This document shows, piece after piece, positions 79 through 58,266 of a stretch of 64,000 nt of DNA. The position numbers and the translations under genes are program-made. How positions within the stretch are numbered: position 1 is the first letter of the stretch; every line of letters begins with the position of its first letter. Origin of the DNA: Escherichia coli (GTDB lineage: Bacteria > Pseudomonadota > Gammaproteobacteria > Enterobacterales > Enterobacteriaceae). The stretch is from NCBI RefSeq assembly GCF_044324785.1, contig NZ_CP172128.1. One strand, given 5' to 3'. Below the pieces are notes generated by a model, which saw nothing but the letters and a program-made list of their open reading frames with translations, searched no databases and was not told the origin of the DNA.

Positions 79-2205
79 TTATGCCAAACGTTCAAGGGCA
101 ATCAGCATGGCGCTTTCCGGATCCAGCACGGGAAGCTGAATACCGGCCTGCGCCAGCCATTCCCCACTGATGTCGGAGGTCTGGTTCATCCAGCCGGGCA
201 GCCTGCGCATGGTATGCCCGCCTTCACCGACCAGCTGAATATCCGGATGGTCAACAACACGAAGCCGGTAACGGGCCTGTGGTGCCAGCCCCGGAAAACG
301 TAGAGCACCCGGCAGGGTGTGATCCGGCATGGCAAGCTGGCTCACCAGGAAGAGCGCCTGCGACTGATCCGGGCTGACCACCCCCTGCACCTGTGTCGCC
401 GCATCCGGCATATCCACCCGCCATAGGGTGCCCGTGTGGATAAGCTGCCGCCATTCTTTGTAGAGCGAGGCATAGCGGCGGTAACCGGCGGATTCCTCTT
501 CTCCGGCCGTTACCGGATCCAGCTCCAGTCCCATATGACCGAACAGGGCCGTCAGACCGCGAAAGGCAATGCTGTGCTGCCGGAAGGTGGCATGGCAGCG
601 ATGATGACCGATGTGTGCCCCCATAACCTCCGGCGGGAAAAAGTAACTCATGCCACGCTGTATGGTGCAGCGCTCCAGGGCGTCATTGTTGTCAGAAGCC
701 CAGAAGCGGTGCGTGCGGGTCAGAACCTCAAAGTCGATACGTCCACCGCCGGAAGCGCAGGACTCAAACTCAACACGGGGAAAACGTTCGCGCAGGAGAT
801 CCAGCAGCCGGTAAAACTGACGGGTCTGCGCGTCCGCCGCCGCCCGACCTTCATGCCCGGCCTGGACCAGCTCGCGGTTCATGTCCCATTTCACATAGTC
901 AACTGGGTGTTCGCCCAGCAGCCATAAACAGCGTTCATAAATGTAAGCAAAGGCCTCAGGAATGTTCAGGTTGAGAACATACTGATGTCTCCCGGTTGGT
1001 TGTGTGTACCCCGGCATTGACAGTACCCAGTCAGGATGGCGGCGAAAGAGGTCAGAGTCCGGGTTAATCATTTCCGGTTCCACCCAGATACCGAACTCCA
1101 TGCCGAGAGATTTCACATGGTTAATCACCGGCATCAGTCCGTCCGGATACTTCTGTTCATCCAGATACCAGTCGCCCAGAGCCGCATGGTCATCATTGCG
1201 CCCCTTAAACCAGCCGTCGTCGATAATGAAACGTTCAACGCCAAGCGCTGCCGCACGTCCGGCCATCTGCATGATGTAGTTCGGGTCGTGGTCAAAATAA
1301 ATACCTTCCCAGGTATTGAGGTGCACCGGACGGGGTTTCTGCTCAGGAAAACGGATGATTTCATCGCGCAGAAAACGGTGGTACTGCTGACTCATACCAT
1401 TGAGCCCCTCCGGGGAATAGCTGGCGTACAGCCACGGCGTGTACACGGTCTCATCCTTCTTCAGGGCTTTTTCTCCGGGCATCCACAGTGCTTCCGCCTG
1501 GAGGTAACGCCGTCCGTCAGTTTTGACCTCACATTTCATGCGATGGTTGCCACTCCAGCCCAGATGTACGGCCCACACCTCGCCCTGCTGTTCTGAGAAA
1601 CCGGGGGCACCGGCAATCAGTGCCGGAAAATGCTCATGGGACGTGCGGCCCCGGCGGTTCTCCAGCACAAAACCGTCATGTGTGAGACGGACCCTGTGCG
1701 GCTGAAACTCACGAGTCCAGCGTCCGTGGAAGGCCATGACTTCCTCTGCCCTTTCAGCCACAGGGAGCGTGATGGCGAAGCGGTTCACCTGCCAGTCCCC
1801 TTCACGGAGGTTCGTCAGGGCATGACGCATCTTCAGCACACCGGACGATGTCAGCACCAGTTCACTGACCATGCGCAGACCCGCCACTGCATCCTCACTG
1901 GTCAGGGTGAGTGATTCTCCGGCCTGTACCACGCTGATGGTACGGAACACAGGGGACGCATCCAGCCCGTTGCGGTGTCCCTCCAGCCCCGGCGAGCCAA
2001 AAAGTCCCGCGCCGTTTTCGGCCATCAGCGTCAGTGGGGTGTCGGTATCCAGACGACCATTCGCAACCGGCCTTTCCAGGCTGATACAGTCATCCGGTGA
2101 AAAGTGTTTCAGGGTGGATCCCCACCAGACAATCTCTGCATACGGGTGGGTTTTAATAATCAGGTCTGAGTGGGGACTGGTCAGCCTGCGGTACATCGGT
2201 TCCAT
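79..2205 (-). CDS. rafA: alpha-galactosidase, GH36 (raffinose operon RafA-like)
   Basis: 708-aa ORF with GH36 melibiase-type blocks (FIIDDGWF, KWDMNRE); lies directly downstream of a LacI-type repressor with operator palindromes, as in plasmid raf operons. Confidence 0.85.
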   Translation of the reverse strand: MEPMYRRLTSPHSDLIIKTHPYAEIVWWGSTLKHFSPDDCISLERPVANGRLDTDTPLTLMAENGAGLFGSPGLEGHRNGLDASPVFRTISVVQAGESLTLTSEDAVAGLRMVSELVLTSSGVLKMRHALTNLREGDWQVNRFAITLPVAERAEEVMAFHGRWTREFQPHRVRLTHDGFVLENRRGRTSHEHFPALIAGAPGFSEQQGEVWAVHLGWSGNHRMKCEVKTDGRRYLQAEALWMPGEKALKKDETVYTPWLYASYSPEGLNGMSQQYHRFLRDEIIRFPEQKPRPVHLNTWEGIYFDHDPNYIMQMAGRAAALGVERFIIDDGWFKGRNDDHAALGDWYLDEQKYPDGLMPVINHVKSLGMEFGIWVEPEMINPDSDLFRRHPDWVLSMPGYTQPTGRHQYVLNLNIPEAFAYIYERCLWLLGEHPVDYVKWDMNRELVQAGHEGRAAADAQTRQFYRLLDLLRERFPRVEFESCASGGGRIDFEVLTRTHRFWASDNNDALERCTIQRGMSYFFPPEVMGAHIGHHRCHATFRQHSIAFRGLTALFGHMGLELDPVTAGEEESAGYRRYASLYKEWRQLIHTGTLWRVDMPDAATQVQGVVSPDQSQALFLVSQLAMPDHTLPGALRFPGLAPQARYRLRVVDHPDIQLVGEGGHTMRRLPGWMNQTSDISGEWLAQAGIQLPVLDPESAMLIALERLA

Positions 2206-2240
2206 AAGACATCTCCGTTTTCGGGTATGCCTTACTGTTG

Positions 2241-2279
2241 ATCCGAATCGTTTCGGATAGCAACCGAAACGATTCGGAT
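2241..2279. promoter_or_regulatory. two operator-like palindromes in rafR-rafA intergenic region
   Basis: ATCCGAATCGTTTCGGAT (2241-2258) and CCGAAACGATTCGG (2263-2279), imperfect palindromes of LacI-family operator type just upstream of rafA start. Confidence 0.5.
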
Positions 2280-2298
2280 TTGTGAGCGGGATTAAAAA

Positions 2299-3309
2299 TC
2301 AGGCGGAGGGAGCAAGCGTTGTCTTGCCAGGATGAAATTCCGGCTGCCAGAGTACTTGTAGCATTTCAGGTGAAACATTCGTGACCAGCTGGCGTATCAT
2401 GTCGGCAACCTGACGACCGACGCGATGTCGTGTTGACTGAAGAACTGCAGCCACATCCTGTTCAATAATACTGTCTTGCGGCAGACCATCATAAACCACA
2501 AGAGAGACGGCATCCTCTCCGGACAGATGACCGGATAACTGCAGCGACATGGCCGCGCCATCACCGATCAGGTCACTGTCGGTAATAATGGCCGTCGGGG
2601 GAAGCGGAAGTGACATTAACTCAGTCACTGCCTGGAAACCTGAGCGTCGGGTGGGAGAGACCCGGCGTAGCCAGGTCTCAGGCAGACCATGTTCACTCAG
2701 GGCATCGCGCCATCCCTGACGTCGTGCAGTGACATAGGTACGGGAGTTGTCCTCACTCAGCAGGGCAATTCGCTGATGGCCCAGGGCAATCAGGTGCTGT
2801 GTGGCCTGCCAGGTTCCTGCATGGTTATCAAAGTCAAACCAGGCACAGGGAAGACCGGACGGCACCTGACCGAGTGCCAGAAACGGAATACCGGCCTCCT
2901 GCAGGTGTGTAAGACGCGGGTCATTATCCAGCGTGTGCGCCACGATAAGGGCATCAACCCGGCGGCTTTCGACCAGACGCATATAGCTGTGGCTGTCAGC
3001 CCGTTCATCATCGGCTATCAGCAGTAAGTCAATATCATGGCGGGCCAGTTCCCGGCTGATACAACTGACCATATCCACAAACACACTACTGCTGAACAGT
3101 ACAGCATGTTCAGGGAAGACCAGGCCGACCGCATCGGTTTTACCGGTTTTGAGACGTCTTGCCAGGGTATTCGGGCGATAACCACGACGCCGAGCTTCCG
3201 CTTCTACACGTGCACGGGTCGAAGCGGAAACGTCCGAAAATCCGCCAAGCGCCCGGCTGACTGTGGTGACAGAGATCCCGAGTTCGGCGGCGATAGCCTT
3301 GAGTGACAT
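2299..3309 (-). CDS. rafR: LacI-family transcriptional repressor (raffinose repressor-like)
   Basis: 336-aa ORF; N-terminal HTH (LKAIAAELGISVTTVSRAL), periplasmic-binding-protein-like C-domain; adjacent to rafA. Confidence 0.75.
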   Translation of the reverse strand: MSLKAIAAELGISVTTVSRALGGFSDVSASTRARVEAEARRRGYRPNTLARRLKTGKTDAVGLVFPEHAVLFSSSVFVDMVSCISRELARHDIDLLLIADDERADSHSYMRLVESRRVDALIVAHTLDNDPRLTHLQEAGIPFLALGQVPSGLPCAWFDFDNHAGTWQATQHLIALGHQRIALLSEDNSRTYVTARRQGWRDALSEHGLPETWLRRVSPTRRSGFQAVTELMSLPLPPTAIITDSDLIGDGAAMSLQLSGHLSGEDAVSLVVYDGLPQDSIIEQDVAAVLQSTRHRVGRQVADMIRQLVTNVSPEMLQVLWQPEFHPGKTTLAPSA

Positions 3310-3643
3310 ATTTTCTCCTGCGGATAACTGAACAGCCCTGTCCCTGATGCGGGTGATCCGGGCAACAAACCTGACAGAGACGCCTGCATAAGTGGTCGCG
3401 CTGTACCAGTATGAGCCTCCATCATCCTGATTTGTGTATTAACTTTCAATACCGGAGGACGATTTGATTACCGGTTGTTAGCAGGAGTGCGAATATTAGA
3501 CCGACGGTGGAGATCTAAGACTCAGTGAGCATAGCGATACACTATATTACTGTAATTAAGCCAGTAAACTTCCTGTTCACTGGCTTAAACGCTAATGATG
3601 TATGCAGTTGAACAAGCTTTTAAACTAATGATTAATTGATATA

Positions 3644-4980
3644 TGAGCTGGCCCCCTGAAACACCAGACAGTAGATGTATCTTAAAATAAGAGGTAGGCT
3701 TGGATATATGTCTAACACTAGTTCTAATTTTGAGATGGCTGGCGTTTTGTTAGGAAAAGAGGTGCGTAAACGTAAAACACCTCAGGAAAAAATCACAATT
3801 ATTCAACAGACTATGGAGCCAGGCATGACGGTGTCTCACGTGGCGCGTTTGCATGGAATTCAGCCCAGCCTGTTGTTTAAGTGGAAAAAACAATACCAGG
3901 AAGGAAGTCTCACTGCTGTGGCTGCGGGTGAAGACGTTGTTCCTGCTTCTGAACTGGCCGCTGCGATAAAGCAGATTAATCAGCTTCAGCGTTTACTGGG
4001 CAAGAAAACAATGGAAGTTGAGCTCCTCAAAGAAGCGGTGGAGTACGCGCAATCGCGAAAATGGATAGCGCATGTGCCCTTGTTACCTTCGGACAAGGAA
4101 TAGCCCCGGTAAGCCGTGTTCTGGGCGTGTCGCGTGCGCAGTTAACATTACGGATGAAGGCATCTGATAACAAGACAGATAAACGGCGTCAGAGACGCGA
4201 TGAGGCTGCGGATGCAGAAGTCTTATCGCGCATCCTGGATATCATTGGCGATATGCCAACATATGGGTATCGCCGTGTCTGGGCGATACCCAGACGGCAG
4301 TCCCGAAATGAAGGCCTGCCGTTCGTGAATGCAAAACGCGTTTACCGGATAATGAGCGAAAACAGCCTGTTGTTGTTGCATGACAAACCATCACGACCTC
4401 AGCGGGCACATAAAGGCCGTGTAGAGGTTAATAAAAGCGACCAGCGTTGGTGTTCCAATGGCTTTGAGTTCGGTTGCGATGATGGCGAAAAAGTCCGGGT
4501 TACGTTCGCCCTGGACTGTTGCGATCGTGAAGCTATCGACTGGGCAGCCAGTACGGGAGGTTACGATAAATCGACAGTGCAGGATGTGATGTTAGGCGCG
4601 ATAGAAAAACGCTTTGGCGATAAAGTGCCGGAACAGTCGATCCAGTGGCTGACAGATAACGATTCAGCGTACAGAGCGCATGAAACACGGCAGTTCGCCA
4701 GAGAGCTGAATCTGGAGCCCTGTACGACGGCAGTCAGCAGTCCTCAGAGTAATGGAATGGCAGAACGGTTCGTGAAAACGATGAAGGAAGACTACATCGC
4801 GTTCATGCCGAAACCGAATGTAAGAACGGCAGTGCATAACCTTGCAGTGGCGATCGAGCATTATAACGAATGGCATCCGCATAGTGCACTGGGTTATCGC
4901 TCGCCACGGGAATATCTGCGGCAGCAGGCCAGTAATGGGTTAAGTGATAACAGGTGTCTGGAAATATAGGGGCAAATCCA
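3644..4980 (+). mobile_element. IS3-family insertion sequence, IS2-like variant (orfA 3675-4103, orfB 4061-4969)
   Basis: overlapping orfA/orfB typical of IS3 family; orfB C-terminus and right end (GGAAATATAGGGGCAAATCCA) identical to IS2; left end TGAGCTGGCCCCCTGAA resembles IS2 IRL; no clear target duplication. Confidence 0.7.
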
Positions 4981-5242
4981 CTGCTGATAATTTAAGTCTG
5001 GCACTAATGATTTTTAGCAATTTTGCGGGTGGGGATGATTTTTTATCCGGAGCAAACCCAATACTTTTCAGATAACAGAGAAGAGCGGCAAAACCAAACC
5101 GGCTGGCAGGTTTACGGTGAACATTGATAATTGCCAGATCCTGTTCACTGAAATACGTCATTCGAGTCAGTGTTAACTCATCGTCTGGTAATGCCAGTAA
5201 TGATTCTTTTTCCGACTGCGAAAGAATCTGCCTCCTTGCCAT
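4981..5242 (-). pseudogene. tnpA: Tn21/Tn3-family transposase TnpA, N-terminal ~87 codons only (truncated by IS2-like element)
   Basis: translation MARRQILSQSEKESLLALPDDEL... matches the conserved N-terminus of Tn21-subfamily TnpA; ORF runs into the IS right end at 4980. Confidence 0.6.
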
Positions 5243-5408
5243 ATAGCCTTCCTTGTAAATTATTTAGTGCGTTATTTTTGATTAAAAAGTTATTGTATAA
5301 GGGTATACCCTGATGCAATAGACAAAACGTGACAGCACTCCAATAATGACATAACCTATATGCGATAGAATAAATGCAATAATCTAAACGCGATAGCGTG
5401 GTAGAAAA
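5243..5408. promoter_or_regulatory. putative res site / divergent promoter region between tnpA and resolvase
   Basis: AT-rich 166-bp divergent intergenic region with repeated GCGATAG motifs; position equivalent to res in Tn3-type modules. Confidence 0.3.
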
Positions 5409-6050
5409 ATGTTCATCAGAGCTTATTTAAGGGCATCGACAGAAGATCAGTTCGCCGATCGGGCAAAAGAGATGCTGGAGCAGTTCGTTCAGGAGCGGGG
5501 GCATAAAATCGCCAGCTACTACCGGGAGAACATCAGCGGCACAAAACTAGACCGCCCGGAACTGGGACGCTTACTGATGGACAGTCATCGCAATGATATC
5601 TTGCTGGTCGAGCAGATAGACCGCCTGACCCGTCTTAGCAACAGTGACTGGATAACGCTGAAAAAGCAGATAGAACAACACGAGTTGCGGATTGTCAGTC
5701 TTGATGTGCCCACATCATGGCAGGCTCTGTCAGATAAAGATCCTTCGCAAGCGGACCCGATCACCCGCACAGTAATAACCGCAATAAATAATATGCTTAT
5801 CGACCTGATGGCTGCAATGTCGCATAAAGACTGGCTGAGTCGTCGTCAACGACAAAAACAGGGAATTGAACGTGCCCATACTTTAGGTAAGTATCGGGGC
5901 AAACAGGCAGATCGGGAACGACATCAGAAAGTAATGTACTACCGGCAGATCAAGAAACTGAGCATCCGTGAAACGGCAGAGGTGACAGGCTATAGTACTT
6001 CCCAAGTTTGTCGCATTCAGGCGCTCTATAAAGAGGTTAAACCTGATTAA
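5409..6050 (+). CDS. serine recombinase (resolvase/invertase family)
   Basis: 213 aa; N-terminal catalytic motif YLRASTEDQ with Ser10; C-terminal HTH region; divergent from tnpA fragment. Confidence 0.7.
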   Translation: MFIRAYLRASTEDQFADRAKEMLEQFVQERGHKIASYYRENISGTKLDRPELGRLLMDSHRNDILLVEQIDRLTRLSNSDWITLKKQIEQHELRIVSLDVPTSWQALSDKDPSQADPITRTVITAINNMLIDLMAAMSHKDWLSRRQRQKQGIERAHTLGKYRGKQADRERHQKVMYYRQIKKLSIRETAEVTGYSTSQVCRIQALYKEVKPD

Positions 6051-6058
6051 AAAATAGC

Positions 6059-6096
6059 CTTAACGTACAATATTTTCCGTTTCCCAAACGGAGCCC
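6059..6096. repeat. Tn21-type 38-bp terminal inverted repeat
   Basis: reverse complement GGGCTCCGTTTGGGAAACGGAAAATATTGTACGTTAAG: GGG outer end, ACGGAAAATA core, TAAG inner end. Confidence 0.55.
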
Positions 6097-6579
6097 AAGA
6101 AGACGGCCGGCGGGCGGAATACGGCACGCTACCTGGGTCGTTATCTGAAGAAGCCACCAATAGCGGCTTCCCGGCTGGCACATTACAACGGAGGGGCGAG
6201 CCTGAGCTTCCGTTACCTGGACCACAAAACGGGAGAGACAGCGACGGAAACGCTGACGCAGCGTGAGCTGGTCGCGAGGATGAAACAGCACATCCCGGAG
6301 AAGTTTTTTAAGATGGTGAGGTACTTCGGGTTCCTTGCCAACCGGGGGTGTGGAGAGAAGCTGCCGCAGGTGTACCGAGCTCTGGGGATGGATAAACCGG
6401 AACCGGTGGCGAAAGTGTGCTATGCACAAATGGTGAAACAGTTCCTGAGTCGTGACCCGTTCGAATGCGTGCTGTGTGGCAGCCGGATGGTATACCGCCG
6501 GGCCCTTGCGGGGCTGAATGTATCAGGGCTGAAGAAAAACGCGCGGGATATCAGTCTGCTGAGGTATGTGCCGGCCTGA
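6097..6579 (+). pseudogene. IS91-family transposase, C-terminal fragment
   Basis: in-frame translation ...YLGRYLKKPPIAASRLAHYNG...VRYFGFLANRG... resembles IS91-family transposase C-termini; 5' part replaced by the Tn21-type IR. Confidence 0.5.
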
Positions 6580-7309
6580 TACAGGGTAAGTGTGTCAGCA
6601 ATCCGGGGAAAGGATAAAAAACCCCATCCGCAGTATAAAAACCGACCACGCAGAGAGAAAAAACACCGGCGTGATGTGAAAAACAGCTTACCGCACGAGG
6701 CATAAGACGCGGACAGTGGTATCGCTTAGTTTTTCAATTTCCTATACGTGAACAGACCAATTTTGCATTCGCCGTCCAGGAGTTTGAGGGGAAAGTAGTC
6801 AGTGTTTTACGCTCAGTCAGGGAAAGTGTGCAATGATAAATGACACGAAAGGAATCGTAGCACATGGGCACCGCGATTCAATATTCAAGGAAAACACAAT
6901 ACAGCAATGTACTTGTTCTGTTTCTATTATTCTAGCGATTTCAATAAAGGCACTTGCTCGCGCTCTGTCATTTTCTGAAACTCTTCATGCTGCATTTCGA
7001 TTTTCCTTCTAAGATCATAACTCGCATACCTGTTCTTTTTATGTATATCCATATCTATTTTTGTGACGAGTTCAAACCACAATGTTCGCACTCCCCATGC
7101 AGCGTTATGAAACATTTCCGCAACGGCTAGTCTGTATTAACTGCTTCGGTCATGTAGTCGCTAATACGTTCAGCGGTAATTTTCGTTATTTCATCGTAAT
7201 TCATTTTATCTCCTACAAGATTATTTAATGGAATGAAAAATATCTGGCCTGATAATAATGTTCCAGAATTAATATCTGCAGGCTATGTTAAGTTGTCCCC
7301 ACACACAAT

Positions 7310-7585
7310 CTACCTGTTTTCTCGTGTGTGCCACAGGCGCAATACATAAATAGTCTGGCCATTAAGTTCGTAACGGATTTCGTACTCGCCAGCAAAAATC
7401 CGTCTGACCTCCCTGGGTTCAAACTGAAACAACTGTTCTCCCATACGTGGATGAGTTAACAGAATGACCGGTGCCTGTGTCAGGGACTGCACCGTTCTGG
7501 CGGCCGCAGGTTTACTGGCCAGCACCAGAAAATCATATAACCGCGCCAAATCAGAAAGCGCCTTACTGGTCCACTTCAGTTCCAT
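7310..7585 (-). CDS. type II toxin, RelE/ParE family
   Basis: 91 aa, RelE/ParE-like size and C-terminal basic residues; start overlaps stop of upstream small RHH-type ORF. Confidence 0.7.
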   Translation of the reverse strand: MELKWTSKALSDLARLYDFLVLASKPAAARTVQSLTQAPVILLTHPRMGEQLFQFEPREVRRIFAGEYEIRYELNGQTIYVLRLWHTRENR

Positions 7586-7869
7586 CAGCGTGGCACCGGT
7601 AACGGATTGTCAGTACTGAGGCTGTCCGCCCAGGCCTGTACAGCCTGATGGTCGATAACCTGTCCGGATTTCACATCGTCCAGGGCTTCCAGCGTCAGGC
7701 GATTACGCTCCTCCTCCTGGGCAAGCCATGCAGAAAGCGCCTGTTTGATAACCCAGCCCCGGGAGCGTTCCAGTCTGGCGGCCATCTGGTCGACTTTATC
7801 AGCCATTGGTAATGGCACATGCGCGGTAATGACTTTTGTTGCCTGTGCGGTATTGTTTTTCATTTGCAT
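7585..7869 (-). CDS. type II antitoxin (ribbon-helix-helix, ParD/CopG-like)
   Basis: 94 aa, directly upstream of and overlapping the toxin gene. Confidence 0.6.
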   Translation of the reverse strand: MQMKNNTAQATKVITAHVPLPMADKVDQMAARLERSRGWVIKQALSAWLAQEEERNRLTLEALDDVKSGQVIDHQAVQAWADSLSTDNPLPVPR

Positions 7870-7925
7870 ACCCGATTAGTTGTTAATCATATTTAATCAT
7901 AGTGATTACTTTCAGACGGAACAAG

Positions 7926-9631
7926 GCAAATAATGCGCGTCAGCGCATGTAAGGCGGCACTCCGTTGTTGCATATGGCACAGGAGTAAAACCGCCGAAGC
8001 CCGGCGTAAGCCGGTACTGACTGATAGATTTCACCTTACCCATCCCCAGCCCTTGTATGTAATAGGACTCGATGGCTAGCTACCATCATATGAAGCAGAG
8101 TGAGCTTGTCCCAGCCCTGAACAGTCAGACTTTGATTAGCAGCAAAAGCCCTCTGCTTCACCTTTCACGCCAGCATTAACATTGAACGGTTGCCAAGAGC
8201 GATGACTCTGCATGTACAAGGGGAATAGGCGTGATGGTTTGGTGAAAGGAGAATATTCATGTTTCAGTTAGGTATTGATGTCAGCAAGAAAACGCTGGAT
8301 TTGTGCCTGCTGCGCGAAGGCGTAAAAGGCAGAGTTAAAACCCGAAAGCTTCAGAATGATATTAATGCTGTCAGCGCGGTAATAGCCTGGCTCAGTAAGC
8401 AACATTGTAAACCTGAAGATGTCCATATCATCATGGAAGCCACTGGTGTTTATCATGAATCACTGGCTTACGGGCTTCACAAAGCCGGGGGCCGGATATC
8501 ACTTGCCAACCCACACAGGGCAAGAGAGTTTGCCCGGGGTATGGGAATGCTGACCAAAAATGACCGGGTTGATGCTTATATGCTGGCTTGCTATGGCGTG
8601 CTTAAAGCACCGGAGCCATGGCTTCCTCCACCGGAAGAAGTCCGCCATCTCAGTGCACTGCTCCGCAGACGTGATGCTCTTGTGGCTGACAGTACTCGCG
8701 AAAAAAACAGGCTGGAAAAATACCTGGCAACAGACACACCTTCTGTTATAGCTGAATCCGTAGAGGCAATGATTGGTCAGTTGAACGCAGAAATTAAACG
8801 TCTGGACAGACTGATCCGTTCACACCTTAACCAGCATCCTGAATTAAAAAAGGATTTTGACCTGCTGACGTCAATAAAATCCGTAGGTTATCAGTTAGGT
8901 CTGAATATGCTTGTCATCCTGCGGAGCCATGATTTCGCCACAGCAGAACAGGTGGCTGCATTTTTAGGTGTCGTTCCCGTTGAAAAATATTCCGGCACCT
9001 CGGTCAGAGGGTGTCCGAAACTGTCAAAAATTGGTCCGCCGGAAATCCGGGCGAAACTGTATCTGGCTTCGTTGTGTGGTCTGAGATTTAACCCATTGAT
9101 GAAAGCGATGTATGAGCGATTATGCCTGAGAGGTAAGGGCAAAATGTGTGCCATTGGTGCGCTGATGAGAAAACTCGTGCACTGGTGCTATGGCGTACTG
9201 AAGACCCAAAAACCGTTTGATGTGGGCTATTTGCCTTCATATGCGCGTAGCGCATGTAAGGCGGCATGATGTAGTTACATATGGTACAGGAGTAAAACCG
9301 CCGAAGCCCGGCGTAAGCCGGTACGTATTGATAGGTTTCACCTATCCCATCCCTGCCCTGCGAGGCCATACGGGCTTTCAGCGATGATGAAGTATAGGTA
9401 AGCCCTTTTAACCCCGTTAGCGCGGCTATGCCGCGCTGTATCGGGGACTTAGTGCTGACAGCTTGCTGGCAGTACTTAGGGGGCTGTACGTCGGAGTTCA
9501 AGCGATTTTTCTTGACAGAACACGGTAGCTGCTAAGCCATACCCGCTTTCAGCCATGAGAGAGCTTCTGTGCGCGGTCGGAGTGGTCCCGACGAGGGTTT
9601 ACCCGAAGTCGGGACGTATCTCCGCGTTAGC
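7926..9631 (+). mobile_element. IS110-family insertion sequence (boundaries uncertain)
   Basis: contains the IS110-type transposase; ~100-bp imperfect direct repeats at 7926-8040 and 9240-9345; highly structured non-coding tail 9270-9631. Confidence 0.4.
8259..9269 (+). CDS. IS110-family transposase (DEDD-type recombinase)
   Basis: 336 aa, N-terminal MFQLGIDVSKKTLDLCLL characteristic of IS110/IS1111 transposases. Confidence 0.8.
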   Translation: MFQLGIDVSKKTLDLCLLREGVKGRVKTRKLQNDINAVSAVIAWLSKQHCKPEDVHIIMEATGVYHESLAYGLHKAGGRISLANPHRAREFARGMGMLTKNDRVDAYMLACYGVLKAPEPWLPPPEEVRHLSALLRRRDALVADSTREKNRLEKYLATDTPSVIAESVEAMIGQLNAEIKRLDRLIRSHLNQHPELKKDFDLLTSIKSVGYQLGLNMLVILRSHDFATAEQVAAFLGVVPVEKYSGTSVRGCPKLSKIGPPEIRAKLYLASLCGLRFNPLMKAMYERLCLRGKGKMCAIGALMRKLVHWCYGVLKTQKPFDVGYLPSYARSACKAA

Positions 9632-9699
9632 GGGGTCAGTTTGGAATTCGGAAAATAAACCATGTTAAGACTATTTTTTAGCCAAAGGGCTTTCAGGAA

Positions 9700-9846: not shown

Positions 9847-10437
9847 ATGTCTCGAATTTTTGCCTATTGTCGGGTTTCCACTCTGGAACAGACGACCGAA
9901 AATCAACGTCGGGAAATCGAAAGCGCGGGTTTTAACGTCAGACCCCAACGAATAATCGAAGAACAAATTAGTGGATCAGTAGCAGCCAGTGAACGTCCAG
10001 GTTTTAACCGGTTGCTTGATCGTCTGGAAAGTGGCGATGTATTGATAGTCACAAAACTGGATCGCCTCGGTCGTAATGCAATGGATATCAGGAAAACAGT
10101 GGAGCAACTGACCGAATCTGGCATCAGGGTACATTGCCTGGCATTAGGTGGTGTTGATCTGACCAGTCCGGCAGGAAAAATGACAATGCAAGTGATTTCA
10201 GCGGTCGCTGAATTTGAACGAGATCTTTTACTTGAACGAACTTATTCAGGGATAGCAAGAGCACGGGATGCAGGAAAACGTTTTGGTCGCCCACCGGTAT
10301 TAAATGAAGAACAAAAACAGAAGGTACTCGAACACATTAAGTCTGGGGGAAGTATAAGTGCTATTGCCAGGGAATTCCGAACCACACGGCAAACAATTCT
10401 GAGAGTTAGAGCGAAACAGCAAACTGTTACTGTATAG
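9847..10437 (+). CDS. tnpR: serine resolvase TnpR
   Basis: 196 aa; catalytic N-terminus [11 protein letters not shown]; C-terminal HTH; Tn3-family resolvase architecture. Confidence 0.8.
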
Positions 10438-17192: not shown

Positions 17193-18523
17193 TAGACTGG
17201 CCCCCTGAATCTCCAGACAACCAATATCACTTAAATAAGTGATAGTCTTAATACTAGTTTTTAGACTAGTCATTGGAGAGCAGATGATTGATGTCTTAGG
17301 ACCGGAGAAACGCAGACGGCGTACTACACAGGAAAAGATCGCTATTGTTCAGCAGAGTTTTGAACCGGGAATGACGGTCTCCCTTGTTGCCCGGCAACAC
17401 GGTGTGGCAGCCAGCCAGTTATTTCTCTGGCGCAAGCAATACCAGGAGGGAAGTCTTACTGCTGTGGCCGCAGGAGAGCAGGTCGTTCCTGCCTCTGAAC
17501 TTGCTGCTGCCATGAAGCAGATTAAAGAACTCCAGCGCCTGCTCGGCAAAAAAACGATGGAAAATGAACTCCTTAAAGAAGCCGTTGAATACGGGCGTGC
17601 AAAAAAGTGGATAGCGCACGCGCCCTTATTGCCCGGGGATGGGGAGTAAGCTTAGTCAGCCGTTGTCTCCGGGTGTCGCGTGCGCAGTTGCACGTAATTC
17701 TCAGACGAACCGATGACTGGAAAGATGGTCGCCGCAGCCGTCACTCAGATGATACGGATGTGCTTCTCCGTATACACCATGTTATCGGAGAGCTGCCCAC
17801 GTATGGTTATCGTCGGGTATGGGCGCTGCTTCGCAGACAGGCCGAACTTGATGGTATGCCTGCGATCAATGCCAAACGTGTTTACCGGATCATGCGCCAG
17901 AATGCGCTGTTGCTTGAGCGAAAAACCGCTGTACCGCCATCGAAACGGGCACATACTGGCAAAGTGGCCGTGAAAGAAAGCAATCAACGATGGTGCTCTG
18001 ACGGGTTCGAGTTCCGCTGTGATAACGGAGAAAAACTGCGAGTCACGTTCGCGCTGGACTGCTGTGACCGTGAGGCACTGCACTGGGCAGTCACTACGGG
18101 CGGCTTCGACAGTGAAACAGTACAGGACGTCATGCTGGGAGCGGTGGAACGCCGCTTCGGCAACGAGCTTCCGGCGTCTCCAGTAGAGTGGCTGACGGAT
18201 AATGGTTCATGCTACCGGGCTAATGAAACACGGCAGTTTGCCCGGATGTTGGGGCTTGAACCGAAGAACACGGCGGTGCGGAGTCCGGAGAGTAACGGCA
18301 TAGCAGAGAGCTTCGTGAAAACGATAAAGCGTGACTACATCAGTATCATGCCTAAACCAGACGGGTTAACGGCAGCAAAGAACCTTGCAGAGGCGTTCGA
18401 GCATTATAACGAATGGCATCCGCATAGTGCACTGGGTTATCGCTCGCCACGGGAATATCTGCGGCAGCAGGCCAGTAATGGGTTAAGTGATAACAGGTGT
18501 CTGGAAATATAGGGGCAAATCCA
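17193..18523 (+). mobile_element. IS2 copy 1 (insC 17284-17649, insD 17607-18512)
   Basis: 1331 bp, IRL TAGACTGGCCCCCTGAATCTCCAGACAACC, right end ...GGGGCAAATCCA; 5-bp target duplication TTTTG on both sides. Confidence 0.9.
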
Positions 18524-30748: not shown

Positions 30749-30979
30749 ATGAGAACCGTATCTATTTTCAAAAATGGCAATAACCGCGCGATCCGTCTGC
30801 CCCGCGATCTGGATTTTGAGGGGGTGAGTGAGCTGGAGATTGTACGGGAAGGGGACAGAATCATTCTGCGTCCCCTCCGCCCGAGCTGGAGCTCATTCCT
30901 GGAGCTAGAAAAGGCCGATCCGGGCTTTATGACGGAACGCGAGGACGTTGTCTGCGACGAAGGACGATTTAACCTGTGA
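30749..30979 (+). CDS. vagC: VagC/VapB antitoxin (AbrB/SpoVT domain)
   Basis: 76 aa, MRTVSIFKNGNNRAIRLPRDL.. swapped-hairpin antitoxin; start/stop overlap with PIN toxin. Confidence 0.85.
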   Translation: MRTVSIFKNGNNRAIRLPRDLDFEGVSELEIVREGDRIILRPLRPSWSSFLELEKADPGFMTEREDVVCDEGRFNL

Positions 30980-31392
30980 ACAAGATCTATATGCTCGACA
31001 CGAACATCTGCTCGTTCATCATGCGCGAGCAGCCTGAAGCAGTGCTTAAGAATCTGGAGCAGGCGGTGCTGCGCGGTCACCGTATAGTGGTCTCGGCCAT
31101 CACCTACTCCGAGATGCGCTTCGGCGCCACCGGTCCAAAGGCATCGCCACGCCACGTGCAGCTGGTTGACGCGTTCTGCGCCCGTCTCGATGCCATCCTG
31201 CCCTGGGATCGCGCTGCGGTGGATGCAACCACGGAGGTTAAGGTGGCGCTGCGCCTCGCCGGCACGCCGATCGGTCCGAACGACACGGCGATCGCCGGGC
31301 ACGCCATCGCCACCGGGGCAATACTGGTGACGAATAATGTGAGAGAGTTTGAGCGGGTGCCTGGACTGGTACTGGAAGACTGGGCAGGATAA
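30976..31392 (+). CDS. vagD: VagD/VapC PIN-domain toxin
   Basis: 138 aa, PIN-domain acidic residues (MLDTNICSF.., ..VTNN..). Confidence 0.85.
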   Translation: MNKIYMLDTNICSFIMREQPEAVLKNLEQAVLRGHRIVVSAITYSEMRFGATGPKASPRHVQLVDAFCARLDAILPWDRAAVDATTEVKVALRLAGTPIGPNDTAIAGHAIATGAILVTNNVREFERVPGLVLEDWAG

Positions 31393-34763: not shown

Positions 34764-36094
34764 TAGACTGGCCCCCTGAATCTCCAGACAACCAATATCA
34801 CTTAAATAAGTGATAGTCTTAATACTAGTTTTTAGACTAGTCATTGGAGAGCAGATGATTGATGTCTTAGGACCGGAGAAACGCAGACGGCGTACTACAC
34901 AGGAAAAGATCGCTATTGTTCAGCAGAGTTTTGAACCGGGAATGACGGTCTCCCTTGTTGCCCGGCAACACGGTGTGGCAGCCAGCCAGTTATTTCTCTG
35001 GCGCAAGCAATACCAGGAGGGAAGTCTTACTGCTGTGGCCGCAGGAGAGCAGGTCGTTCCTGCCTCTGAACTTGCTGCTGCCATGAAGCAGATTAAAGAA
35101 CTCCAGCGCCTGCTCGGCAAAAAAACGATGGAAAATGAACTCCTTAAAGAAGCCGTTGAATACGGGCGTGCAAAAAAGTGGATAGCGCACGCGCCCTTAT
35201 TGCCCGGGGATGGGGAGTAAGCTTAGTCAGCCGTTGTCTCCGGGTGTCGCGTGCGCAGTTGCACGTAATTCTCAGACGAACCGATGACTGGAAAGATGGT
35301 CGCCGCAGCCGTCACTCAGATGATACGGATGTGCTTCTCCGTATACACCATGTTATCGGAGAGCTGCCCACGTATGGTTATCGTCGGGTATGGGCGCTGC
35401 TTCGCAGACAGGCCGAACTTGATGGTATGCCTGCGATCAATGCCAAACGTGTTTACCGGATCATGCGCCAGAATGCGCTGTTGCTTGAGCGAAAAACCGC
35501 TGTACCGCCATCGAAACGGGCACATACTGGCAAAGTGGCCGTGAAAGAAAGCAATCAACGATGGTGCTCTGACGGGTTCGAGTTCCGCTGTGATAACGGA
35601 GAAAAACTGCGAGTCACGTTCGCGCTGGACTGCTGTGACCGTGAGGCACTGCACTGGGCAGTCACTACGGGCGGCTTCGACAGTGAAACAGTACAGGACG
35701 TCATGCTGGGAGCGGTGGAACGCCGCTTCGGCAACGAGCTTCCGGCGTCTCCAGTAGAGTGGCTGACGGATAATGGTTCATGCTACCGGGCTAATGAAAC
35801 ACGGCAGTTTGCCCGGATGTTGGGGCTTGAACCGAAGAACACGGCGGTGCGGAGTCCGGAGAGTAACGGCATAGCAGAGAGCTTCGTGAAAACGATAAAG
35901 CGTGACTACATCAGTATCATGCCTAAACCAGACGGGTTAACGGCAGCAAAGAACCTTGCAGAGGCGTTCGAGCATTATAACGAATGGCATCCGCATAGTG
36001 CACTGGGTTATCGCTCGCCACGGGAATATCTGCGGCAGCAGGCCAGTAATGGGTTAAGTGATAACAGGTGTCTGGAAATATAGGGGCAAATCCA
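34764..36094 (+). mobile_element. IS2 copy 2
   Basis: ORFs identical to copy 1; 5-bp target duplication CCTGT on both sides. Confidence 0.9.
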
Positions 36095-36722
36095 CCTGTG
36101 TATCCGGATATTTGAAATGGATCTTCCAGAAGCGGACTCGGGTAGTATCTTCATGGTTTGGCTTTCAGCAGATCTGTGACTCTGCTATTTATTGATGAAT
36201 ATGACCTTTACAATTCCAGTTATTGTTCTGATTGCAATAATCACTTCATCACAATAATCCACCATTTTTTGTGATTATCTGGCAATAATTTTCTTTTCTG
36301 CTCCAGAGATCCGAAAACTCCTGGTTCCGGATCCGCGGATCCTTCGCTGCCGCCCGCTGGTCCGCTTTCACAGGATGTGGTGTCCCGCTCCGCTGACATG
36401 ACACTGTATGTTGTGTTTCTTCCCGTGTTCCCGAGCCAGTCATCAGCGGCAGAAAAGATCGCTTCGCTTATTCACTGATCCTGATTCACTTCCGGAAAAT
36501 CCTGAATCCGATAAAAATCGGATCATAGAAAAACAGTCATCCTGTAATTTATCATAGTTACTACATTGCAGGTTATTATTGTCATGATTACTTTTCAGGT
36601 CAGTTATTGATGGTGGTGTTAATAATAGCTGGATAACAATATTCCGTTGCCGGAGGCATGTTATAGCGTAATACTGGTGTATACTTAATGGTGTACAGAG
36701 AGTATGTAAGATGAGGTGCATT

Positions 36723-37248
<526 letters not shown>

Positions 37249-48219: not shown

Positions 48220-49146
48220 ATGCCAAACTGGTGCTCGAATCGTATGTATTTTTCTGGTGAACCGGCACAGATCGCTGAGATTAAACGACTGGCCAGTGGT
48301 GCAGTCACACCGCTTTATCGCCGCGCCACAAATGAAGGTATTCAGCTGTTTCTGGCCGGAAGTGCCGGACTTCTGCAGACCACTGAAGATGTGCGGTTTG
48401 AACCATGCCCCGGACTGACGGCTGCCGGACGTGGTGTTGTATCTCCGGAGAATATAGCGTTCACCCGCTGGCTGACACACCTGCAGAACGGTGTACTGCT
48501 GGATGAGCAAAACTGCCTGATGCTGCATGAACTCTGGCTGCAGAGCGGTACTGGACAGCGTCGCTGGGAAGGATTACCGGACGATGTCAGGGATACCATC
48601 ACCGCACTTTTCACCGCAAAAAGAGGTGACTGGTGTGGCTTCTGGAGTAACGAGGATGTATCGGTGTGGTGGAACCGTCTGTGTGACAATGTACTGCCGG
48701 AAAAAACCATGCCGTTTGACCTGCTGACGGTTCTGCCGACCCGCCTTGATGTTGAAGTGAATGGCTTCAACGGTGGTGTTCTGAACGGTGTTCCTTCTGC
48801 ATATCACTGGTATACAGAACTGTATGGTGTGAAGTGGCCTTGTGGGTATGACCTGAATATCAGCAGTCAGGGGGAAAACTTCATTCAGGTGGATTTCGAC
48901 ACGCCGTGGTGTCAGCCGGAAAGCGACGTTATTGCAGCATTAAGCCGCCGTTTCAGCTGCACGCTGGAGCACTGGTATGCCGAACAGGGCTGTGATTTCT
49001 GTGGCTGGCAGTTGTATGAGCGCGGAGAGCTTGTTGATGTGCTGTGGGGGGAACTGGAATGGTCTTCCCCGACAGATGACGATGAGCTGCCGGAAGTCAC
49101 CGGACCTGCGTGGATAGTCGACAATGTGGCGCATTATGGCGGATGA
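48220..49146 (+). CDS. hypothetical leading-region protein (Cys/Trp-rich, ~308 aa)
   Basis: long ORF with GAGGAG RBS before ATG at 48220; not recognised. Confidence 0.5.
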   Translation: MPNWCSNRMYFSGEPAQIAEIKRLASGAVTPLYRRATNEGIQLFLAGSAGLLQTTEDVRFEPCPGLTAAGRGVVSPENIAFTRWLTHLQNGVLLDEQNCLMLHELWLQSGTGQRRWEGLPDDVRDTITALFTAKRGDWCGFWSNEDVSVWWNRLCDNVLPEKTMPFDLLTVLPTRLDVEVNGFNGGVLNGVPSAYHWYTELYGVKWPCGYDLNISSQGENFIQVDFDTPWCQPESDVIAALSRRFSCTLEHWYAEQGCDFCGWQLYERGELVDVLWGELEWSSPTDDDELPEVTGPAWIVDNVAHYGG

Positions 49147-49194
49147 AGTATGACGGAGACGGGCGGGAAACCGCCCGTTTCTTTTCCGACAAAG

Positions 49195-49551
49195 GATGTC
49201 GCCGGCGGCTCCGCTTTACCCGGCCATGCGGGGCATGGCCTTGTGGGTTTTCAACTCTGTAGCCTCAGCGTCGTGTGCGGGCTGTGCCGTGCCTCCATCG
49301 TAGCCGGGCTTCTGCGGGCGGGTTGCAAGGTAAGGTGAACCGCTGCGGTCACCCGGTCCCTCCTTCCCGTCTGCCGTGATTTTCCGGTCGTTCACCCGCT
49401 CAGATTTCGCGGTCTCACCCTCCAACTCCCGTCAGCCGTGTGCGTCAGGCTGCGGCTTCCCTTGCGCCCTTGCAACCCTGCAGGCCCGGCAAAGATGGAG
49501 GCACGGCACCGCCCGGTGTCGCGGAATATGTGAACAACGGAGGAAAACATC
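49195..49551 (+). repeat. GC-rich structured leading-region repeat, type B copy 1 (Frpo/ssi-like)
   Basis: ~360 bp nearly identical to 56148-56507; ends at klcA start. Confidence 0.6.
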
Positions 49552-57739: not shown

Positions 57740-58174
57740 ATGACAGTCAGCAGCACGATTTCCGTTTTTTGCCGCGACGGGGTGTTCCGTACCGTTTACT
57801 GCCACCTGCACGGTGAGCCGGCCCGGAACGGTCGCATCCTGCATACCCACTATGCCACCGGTCAGCAGGCCGAAGCCCTAGTTGAACACGGTGATATCCG
57901 TTGCCTCGGTCCCCGTTGCGACAAACCCGCCGGGCATACGCTTCAGAACCCGGTGGACGGTGTGACGGCTTATTACGGACGTGACAGTGGTTTCCGGATG
58001 GACAGTGAAGCGCGTGAGTACCGCTCTTTCAGGGAGGCTATTGCCACTGAAAGCACAGAAGAGGTGCGCTTCCATTATGTGTTCATCGACGGCTACTGGA
58101 AGGTGATGTACCGCACGCCGGAAGGCTGGAAGATGAAAGCGCTCGCGCTGGCACTGCGTCGCTGTCCGGAATGA
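57740..58174 (+). CDS. hypothetical leading-region protein (144 aa)
   Basis: AAGGAG RBS 8 bp before ATG at 57740; Cys/His-containing; not recognised. Confidence 0.5.
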   Translation: MTVSSTISVFCRDGVFRTVYCHLHGEPARNGRILHTHYATGQQAEALVEHGDIRCLGPRCDKPAGHTLQNPVDGVTAYYGRDSGFRMDSEAREYRSFREAIATESTEEVRFHYVFIDGYWKVMYRTPEGWKMKALALALRRCPE

Positions 58175-58266
58175 AAAAAAGCAGGGCGATAACCCCTGCC
58201 TTTCTCCGCCGGCGCTTCCCCGTACGGAAGTCCGGCATCTCATTCACTAACTATGGAGATTATGCC

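Follow-up and report, generated by a model that had tools for sequence, protein, structure and literature searches.

The DNA analysed here is a stretch of 64,000 nucleotides (the window) of the Escherichia coli contig NZ_CP172128.1 (assembly GCF_044324785.1), and two small overlapping genes in it are read as an intact type II toxin–antitoxin (TA) operon, made up of a ribbon-helix-helix (RHH) antitoxin and a toxin of the ParE subfamily, with a probability of about 0.75. The narrower statement, that these are a real ParE-subfamily TA gene pair, is highly probable, and the window contains the two genes as an intact pair, conserved and inherited together, the one coding for an RHH protein and the other for a protein of ParE fold. 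Whether this pair also works as a plasmid addiction system is a separate matter, and is treated below together with the other roles which have to be weighed. The two genes are the following:

7585–7869, minus strand: antitoxin gene, with an RHH (CopG-type) DNA-binding N-terminus and a toxin-binding C-terminal region (open reading frame and Pfam RHH_1; 94 residues as annotated)
7310–7585, minus strand: toxin gene, ParE subfamily of the RelE/ParE superfamily (open reading frame and Pfam; 91 residues)

Gene pair, toxin type and proposed operon control

At the junction of the two genes the sequence reads TGATG, the antitoxin stop codon TGA (7587–7585) and the toxin start codon ATG (7585–7583) having base 7585 in common, and this 1-nt overlap fits translational coupling. 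The toxin matches Pfam PF05016 ParE_toxin over its full length (E=7.7e-17, 62 bits against a cutoff of 23) and the antitoxin matches PF01402 RHH_1 above the gathering score (E=1.2e-10). An earlier note on this DNA, made from the letters alone, had described a RelE/ParE-type TA pair of overlapping genes at 7310–7869 with the antitoxin first; the coordinates proved exact, and the order, the overlap and the TA identity were all upheld. The same two open reading frames are annotated by RefSeq/PGAP on the E. coli plasmid pLH10-b-1-A (NZ_CP100531.1), where the proteins are identical to those of the window: the toxin is WP_000421257.1, labelled 'type II toxin-antitoxin system RelE/ParE family toxin', and the antitoxin is WP_012006537.1, labelled 'CopG family ribbon-helix-helix protein'. 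For homologues of the antitoxin, the precomputed Pfam assignments give RHH_1 together with PF27535 'RelB3_C'. All the homologous loci that were inspected, with toxin identities as low as 54%, have an RHH_1 + RelB3_C antitoxin of 85–93 residues ahead of the toxin and overlapping it. Since the Aeromonas orthologue of the antitoxin (81% identity) has its start codon at the equivalent of M3, the true antitoxin start is probably the third codon, the ATG at 7863, which would give a protein of 92 residues.

As PF05016 spans both the ParE and the RelE subfamilies, the Pfam match is not by itself decisive, and the earlier note had left the choice between the two to a profile search. Three independent lines, namely a profile of the toxin, a profile of its partner and the comparison of folds, resolve it towards ParE. 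A toxin profile built from 67 homologues (36–96% identity) was run against all PDB sequences and gave nine significant ParE-type matches up to E=0.1, the best being ParE_SO of Shewanella (7etr_C, E=2e-11). Further matches included the ParE proteins of Mesorhizobium (MoParE; 6x0a, 5ceg) and P. aeruginosa (PaParE1; 6xrw_A), E. coli O157 ParE2 (5cw7), M. tuberculosis ParE1 (MtbParE1; 8c24), Caulobacter ParE1 (CcParE1; 3kxe), PrpT (7ycs) and Vibrio ParE2 (7r5a). The matches outside ParE were a weak one to a RelE-like protein of T. thermophilus (E=7e-4) and a non-significant one to 2l09_A (E=0.34), and E. coli RelE, YoeB, HigB and YafQ were absent among the PDB matches; nor did any NCBIfam model, RelE/StbE included, match the toxin at E<=0.1. 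The antitoxin profile, in turn, found CopA_SO (6iya / 7etr_A, ~1e-6) and P. aeruginosa ParD (6xrw_B, 3e-6) as its best PDB matches, so that in the shared complexes ParE_SO–CopA_SO (7ETR) and P. aeruginosa ParDE (6XRW), both of ParE type, one chain corresponds to the toxin and the other to the antitoxin. A match of the toxin to the 1950-residue P0332, with ten toxin-like stretches, was set aside as probably spurious, no ParE domain being found there by Pfam.

The third line comes from a confident AlphaFold model of the toxin, whose top seven structural matches are all ParE, with longer alignments. The fold is ParE-like, with a short strand, a two-helix hairpin and a three-stranded sheet, and has no RelE-type C-terminal helix. 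In E. coli RelE the catalytic set comprises Lys52, Lys54, Arg61, Arg81 and Tyr87, the last of which is carried on the C-terminal helix; the present toxin terminates at residue 91, 5 residues past the last strand, and therefore has no equivalent of the Tyr87 helix. In the Shewanella pair, His91 of ParE_SO is required for toxicity and Glu54 of CopA_SO for neutralisation (PMC8706911); the former aligns with the near-invariant H86 of the toxin and the latter with E61 of the antitoxin, while Arg18 of ParE_SO is not conserved, Tyr17 standing at the aligned toxin position. A fused antitoxin–linker–toxin AlphaFold2 model gave a predicted local distance difference test (pLDDT) of 84–96 for the last 40 antitoxin residues and low values for the monomeric RHH part, a result which agrees with binding of the antitoxin tail to the toxin and is only suggestive. 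The alternative of a toxin of RelE type, cleaving mRNA in a ribosome-dependent manner, with the TA operon and its autoregulation otherwise unchanged, is improbable in view of the profile matches, which are nearly all ParE, of the structural matches and the missing helix, and of the mapping of both partners to ParE complexes.

Upstream of the antitoxin gene the following elements are proposed:

7886–7915, minus strand: promoter-like site of the operon (-35 CTGAAA, 18-nt spacer, -10 TATGAT; 9/12 matches in a consensus scan)
7883–7907, no strand assigned: candidate operator, the palindrome AATCA-CTA-TGATT with a second TATGATTAA copy 10 bp (one helical turn) on
7933–8006, minus strand: two terminator-like hairpins (8006–7992 and 7948–7933) upstream of the promoter, in a segment conserved in pO157 and pINV

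The promoter-like site lies ~17 nt upstream of the annotated antitoxin ATG, and is proposed because of this position and of its conservation across genera. The repeats of the candidate operator overlap the -10 box. The best available evidence for the palindrome and direct repeat as a candidate operator of the operon is that their core, AATCACTATGATTAA, is common to the E. coli plasmids and the transposon-borne Aeromonas copies, even with synonymous sites saturated. Short repeated motifs of the same sort serve as binding sites for RHH antitoxins, CopA_SO among them (PMC8706911). The two hairpins, for their part, probably shield the operon from upstream transcription.

The solved homologues ParE_SO–CopA_SO and P. 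aeruginosa ParDE suggest the following mechanism. The antitoxin would dimerise through its RHH domain and bind the palindrome/direct-repeat operator over the -10 box, repressing the operon, and its C-terminal tail would wrap around the two-helix hairpin of the toxin, which would thus be neutralised. From ParE biology it may further be expected that, on loss of the plasmid, the labile antitoxin would decay and the freed toxin would cause growth arrest, most likely through gyrase poisoning, so that plasmid-bearing cells would be favoured. The identity of the target is drawn from analogy, and gyrase is given an even chance.

Conservation, toxicity and alternative roles

The module is present in ~2,800 of the 72,556 plasmids of PLSDB, the majority of them conjugative and from the genera Escherichia, Klebsiella, Shigella and Salmonella, and in 1,757 of 5,426 complete E. 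coli genomes (about one in three), nearly always on plasmids. In pO157 and pAA1070 an intact pair is located ~0.9 kb from the IncFII (incompatibility group FII) repA/oriR, in Shigella pINV the pair lies near ccdAB, and pAPEC-O1-ColBM carries the locus at 99.9% identity. The full pair is found in only about half of the matching plasmids, the others holding dead toxin fragments, and the module appears to be an old feature of the IncF backbone that has repeatedly been destroyed. In some 1,350 PLSDB plasmids there is a toxin fragment alone, with neither antitoxin nor open toxin frame, which corresponds to the 3' 240 bp (~94% identity) or to 65 bp; on the Klebsiella plasmid pBSI029-KPC2 (extract 4001–4241) a toxin fragment stands beside parM/stbB in an R100-like backbone.

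Where the pair is kept, its sequence is constrained. Among E. coli-type plasmids the ratio of nonsynonymous to synonymous divergence (pN/pS) of the toxin is 0.05–0.25, and against the Aeromonas and Pseudomonas copies pS reaches 0.8–0.9, which is near saturation, with pN of 0.12–0.14 and a pN/pS of ~0.15. By this measure the toxin is under strong purifying selection across genera, which is an argument for a functional toxin, and the antitoxin too is under purifying selection.

Several observations weigh against a working operon of this kind. The toxin of pAA1070, from E. coli O104:H4 (WP_000421273.1), is identical to that of the window at 89 of 91 residues (98%), and the published 'relE/parE 1' primers map onto its gene; when this relE/parE 1 was expressed from pBAD33, neither of the two hosts, DH5alpha and the cured native strain, lost viability significantly in LB medium, and the most that was recorded in M9 medium was an effect below 10-fold, ascribed to 'one of' the two pAA1070 RelE/ParE constructs (PMC11950199). 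As regards the target, gyrase inhibition is not universal among ParE proteins, an exception being ParE2 of E. coli O157 (PMC8706911). Moreover, the toxin family conserves several basic and aromatic residues on the sheet and tail (R61, Y68, Y72, H86, E89 and R91), as well as R88, which leaves the RelE alternative a small weight, and the number of promoter-like sites returned by the scan for the region is not above chance.

Nevertheless, the negative assay has been weighed lightly. Ahead of the gene, the pAA1070 insert contained no more than ~30 nt of the native sequence, in which no Shine-Dalgarno sequence is apparent, as befits a gene which is translationally coupled in its native context, and pBAD33 is not known to supply a ribosome-binding site, so that the construct probably had none. 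In addition, production of the protein was not verified (PMC11950199). Formally, the finding is that of a toxin which is not toxic when expressed alone, the very outcome that the earlier note had named as grounds for giving up the proposal, but as evidence it is weak. A second ParE/ParD pair lies beside the orthologous one in pAA1070 (48876–49421), both genes of which are annotated as pseudogenes by PGAP, the toxin with an internal stop and the antitoxin with a frameshift; this is the 'relE/parE 2' of the assay, and its lack of toxicity is what would be expected of a pseudogene.

The alternative of a module that does not kill in E. coli, its toxin being attenuated to the point of barely any toxicity and the pair being kept because the antitoxin or the complex is a regulator, or by hitch-hiking on IncF backbones, draws on the same data and is considered unlikely. 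It accounts for the behaviour of the 98%-identical toxin and for the remark of the same authors that pAA has no TA system to stabilise it (PMC11950199), and the dead toxin fragments kept by about half of the matching plasmids imply that loss is tolerated. However, an inert protein would hardly be expected to show a cross-genus pN/pS of ~0.15, the positions on which ParE_SO toxicity and CopA_SO neutralisation depend are conserved, and the negative assay itself was performed with no evident ribosome-binding site and with expression unverified. Under the preferred reading of an intact TA operon, plasmid addiction by the pair is, by analogy with its relatives, plausible but unproven, and the chances of a measurable contribution to the maintenance of the window plasmid are put at somewhat less than even. 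The 'strong addiction redundancy' deduced earlier from three TA loci consequently holds only in part: the three loci are indeed there, but to count the ParE pair as a working addiction system, and hence to speak of redundancy, is premature, the one published assay, on the 98%-identical toxin, being negative though technically weak.

A further possibility, which is rather more doubtful, is that the module is mainly a passenger, or a part, of Tn3-family transposons with the layout <T <A tnpR> tnpA>, serving transposon maintenance or transposition, and that the IncF copy is a captured relic. In fact, the Aeromonas homologues (toxin 79%, antitoxin 81% identity) are divergent to a Tn3-family resolvase and transposase in four of five loci, the fifth having only Tn3-family tnpA fragments and a truncated resolvase nearby. 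The P. aeruginosa homologues lie ~2 kb from a Tn3-family tnpA, the layout is that described for ParE/ParD of the Tn5501 type (PMC7157771), and in the window (9847–10437) as in pAPEC-O1-ColBM a serine-recombinase gene is divergent to the antitoxin. The recombinase of the window, however, shares only 33% identity with the TnpR of Aeromonas and is adjoined by no Tn3-family transposase, and the block which the window has in common with pO157 and pINV ends at 9632, before the recombinase is reached; on account of that identity and of its position outside the conserved block, the idea that it is the TnpR belonging to a TA module of Tn3 type was rejected. Furthermore, transposon genes are absent around the pO157 and pAA1070 copies, whose neighbour is the IncFII repA/oriR, and more distant homologues occur in ordinary chromosomal contexts. 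As far as can be judged from such sequence comparisons, a transposon origin of the enterobacterial copy is possible but unproven.

A broader conjecture, which is held at lower odds still, would have pairs of ParE with RHH/RelB3_C proteins as accessories of Tn3-family transposition or resolution, captured by IncF plasmids near the FII origin, with a role other than classical growth arrest or post-segregational killing (e.g. regulation, element competition or exclusion). If true, it would reconcile the published lack of toxicity with the cross-genus pN/pS of ~0.15. In Aeromonas plasmids and metagenome contigs (locus ~900–6100) the cargo of a Tn3-family transposon comprises this TA family and a carbonic anhydrase gene, and some copies neighbour ThsB-TIR, HEPN/MNT and SLATT genes, a setting resembling a defence island. 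For the pair in the window, an anti-phage defence role was discarded, PADLOC having given no hits.

Mosaic surroundings of the pair

The pair is embedded in a mosaic region, where the following insertion sequence (IS) elements and other remnants lie about it:

6097–6579, plus strand: IS91-family (Y2_Tnp) transposase fragment lacking the N-terminus (PGAP and Pfam Y2_Tnp)
7005–7204, minus strand: frameshifted remnant of a small conserved hypothetical open reading frame, downstream of the toxin (PGAP pseudogene)
8054–9528, plus strand: IS110-family element, with its transposase at 8259–9269 (Pfam DEDD_Tnp_IS110 and Transposase_20; breakpoints from the pO157 alignment)

The position of the pair between IS91 debris and an IS110-family element, as first described, is therefore borne out. 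In pAPEC-O1-ColBM the IS91 copy is complete and the IS110-family insertion is absent. This insertion lies 184 bp upstream of the annotated antitoxin ATG, ~139 bp beyond the -35 box and beyond both hairpins, and its transposase is transcribed away from the operon, so that the operon and its promoter have been left intact. A 147-bp stretch at the right end of the element (9241–9387), overlapping the 3' end of the transposase gene, is ~83% identical to the uninterrupted, hairpin-rich target region in pO157 (extract 4624–4772; cf. window 7933–8053), and to judge from this the element appears to have gone into a target similar to a portion of its own sequence. The remnant at 7005–7204 is within a ~1.15-kb block common to other IncF plasmids, the homology block with pO157 spanning 7011–8053; it matches no Pfam family, and nothing evident ties it to the TA system.

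Within 5 kb of the pair there are also two serine-recombinase (resolvase) genes which differ from each other, the one at 9847–10437 already mentioned and another at 5409–6050, as well as a fragment of the N-terminal part (DUF4158) of a Tn3-family transposase at 4985–5242. Together they represent what is left of one or more Tn3-family elements in this mosaic region. On a larger scale, the window is near-identical to pLH10-b-1-A, from which it differs by two extra IS insertions elsewhere, each of ~1.33 kb (17196–18523 and 34764–36094), the remainder being 99.96–99.99% identical; both insertions are ~73% similar to the IS3-family element at 3735–4969.

The other two type II TA loci named earlier for the window are both present, vapBC (called vagCD in the earlier note) at 30749–31392 and ccdAB at ~36711–37248, and no further TA system was found within it; pemIK of pLH10-b-1-A falls just past the window end. 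A fourth killer locus, of the type I pnd/hok kind, was searched for by tblastn of the window with approximate queries, and was rejected when no Hok/SrnB/PndA-like peptide appeared. An open reading frame at ~57741–58175 bears the name 'post-segregation killing protein PndC' in the PGAP annotation of the near-identical plasmid, a name which is probably no sign of a functional pnd killer locus in the window. The Rfam search found only an ALIL pseudoknot.

Comparison with known systems

The pair was already known as a routinely annotated and very widespread plasmid TA module, and its discovery value is accordingly small: it is annotated in RefSeq, it occurs in about one third of complete E. coli genomes, and it is noted in the pINV and pAA papers, the former listing 'parE/copG' among the maintenance genes of the Shigella plasmid (PMC6489325). 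Literature searches by protein accession, and for CopG with RelE/ParE and IncFII, returned nothing. The RelE/ParE 1 and CopG-family antitoxin of pAA1070 are the same pair, with the same gene sizes and the same 1-nt overlap, the toxin differing by the conservative substitutions A14S and L74I, and this is the only member for which experimental data were found. The pAA1070 copy adjoins the IncFII/FIB replicons, whereas that of the window, on a ColBM-type plasmid, is set between the IS91 fragment and the IS110-family insertion.

The module is to be called ParE-type and not RelE-type, and should not be confused with ParDE-I (yacAB), another ParE-superfamily TA system of the same kinds of plasmids (IncI1/IncF), which is a different locus and for which toxicity, SOS induction and plasmid stabilisation have been demonstrated (PMC6614396). 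Identity of the pair with ParDE-I of IncI/IncF plasmids (Kamruzzaman and Iredell 2019), which the presence of pAPEC-O1-ColBM (with the window locus at 99.9%) among the listed ParDE-I plasmids might suggest, or its equivalence to a PrpT/PrpA-like copy-number controller, which its place beside the IncFII origin in pO157 and pAA1070 might suggest, can be dismissed as very improbable: neither the promoter published for ParDE-I, the locus of pJIE512b, nor either of its quantitative PCR primers could be matched to the window, even when 3 mismatches were allowed (PMC6614396), ParD-I begins MA..., unlike the antitoxin of the window, and an origin-binding role like that of PrpA was rejected since PrpA belongs to PF03693 and the antitoxin to RHH_1, and the operator-like motif, which occurs in the TA promoter only, is absent from the pO157 oriR region. 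ParDE-I and the present module can, in any case, share a plasmid, as they do in pAPEC-O1-ColBM.

Of the systems with solved structures, ParE_SO–CopA_SO, from the S. oneidensis prophage CP4So (7ETR, 6IYA), is the closest PDB sequence relative of both partners, with an identity of only ~25%. The architecture is the same, an RHH antitoxin with a toxin-binding tail and a short ParE, and the candidate operator of the window, like that of CopA_SO, is made up of short repeats, these being GTANTAC in the case of CopA_SO and AATCA/TGATT in the window. The Shewanella system is prophage-borne and clearly toxic in E. coli (PMC8706911). The chromosomal ParDE of P. aeruginosa (6XRW) is a distant relative, and gyrase inhibition has been reported for PaParE (reference 33 of PMC8706911). 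As for the Tn3-family systems, the Aeromonas homologues of the pair share with the ParE/ParD of the Tn5501 type the layout relative to tnpR/tnpA, and the copy in the window, unlike these, has no adjoining Tn3-family transposase; moreover, the Tn5501 antitoxin was reported to have no Pfam match (PMC7157771) whereas that of the window is RHH_1, so that, to go by its description, Tn5501 probably represents a different lineage. With the classical archetypes, E. coli RelBE and the ParDE of RK2, the pair has in common the superfamily fold and the same antitoxin-first logic of the operon.

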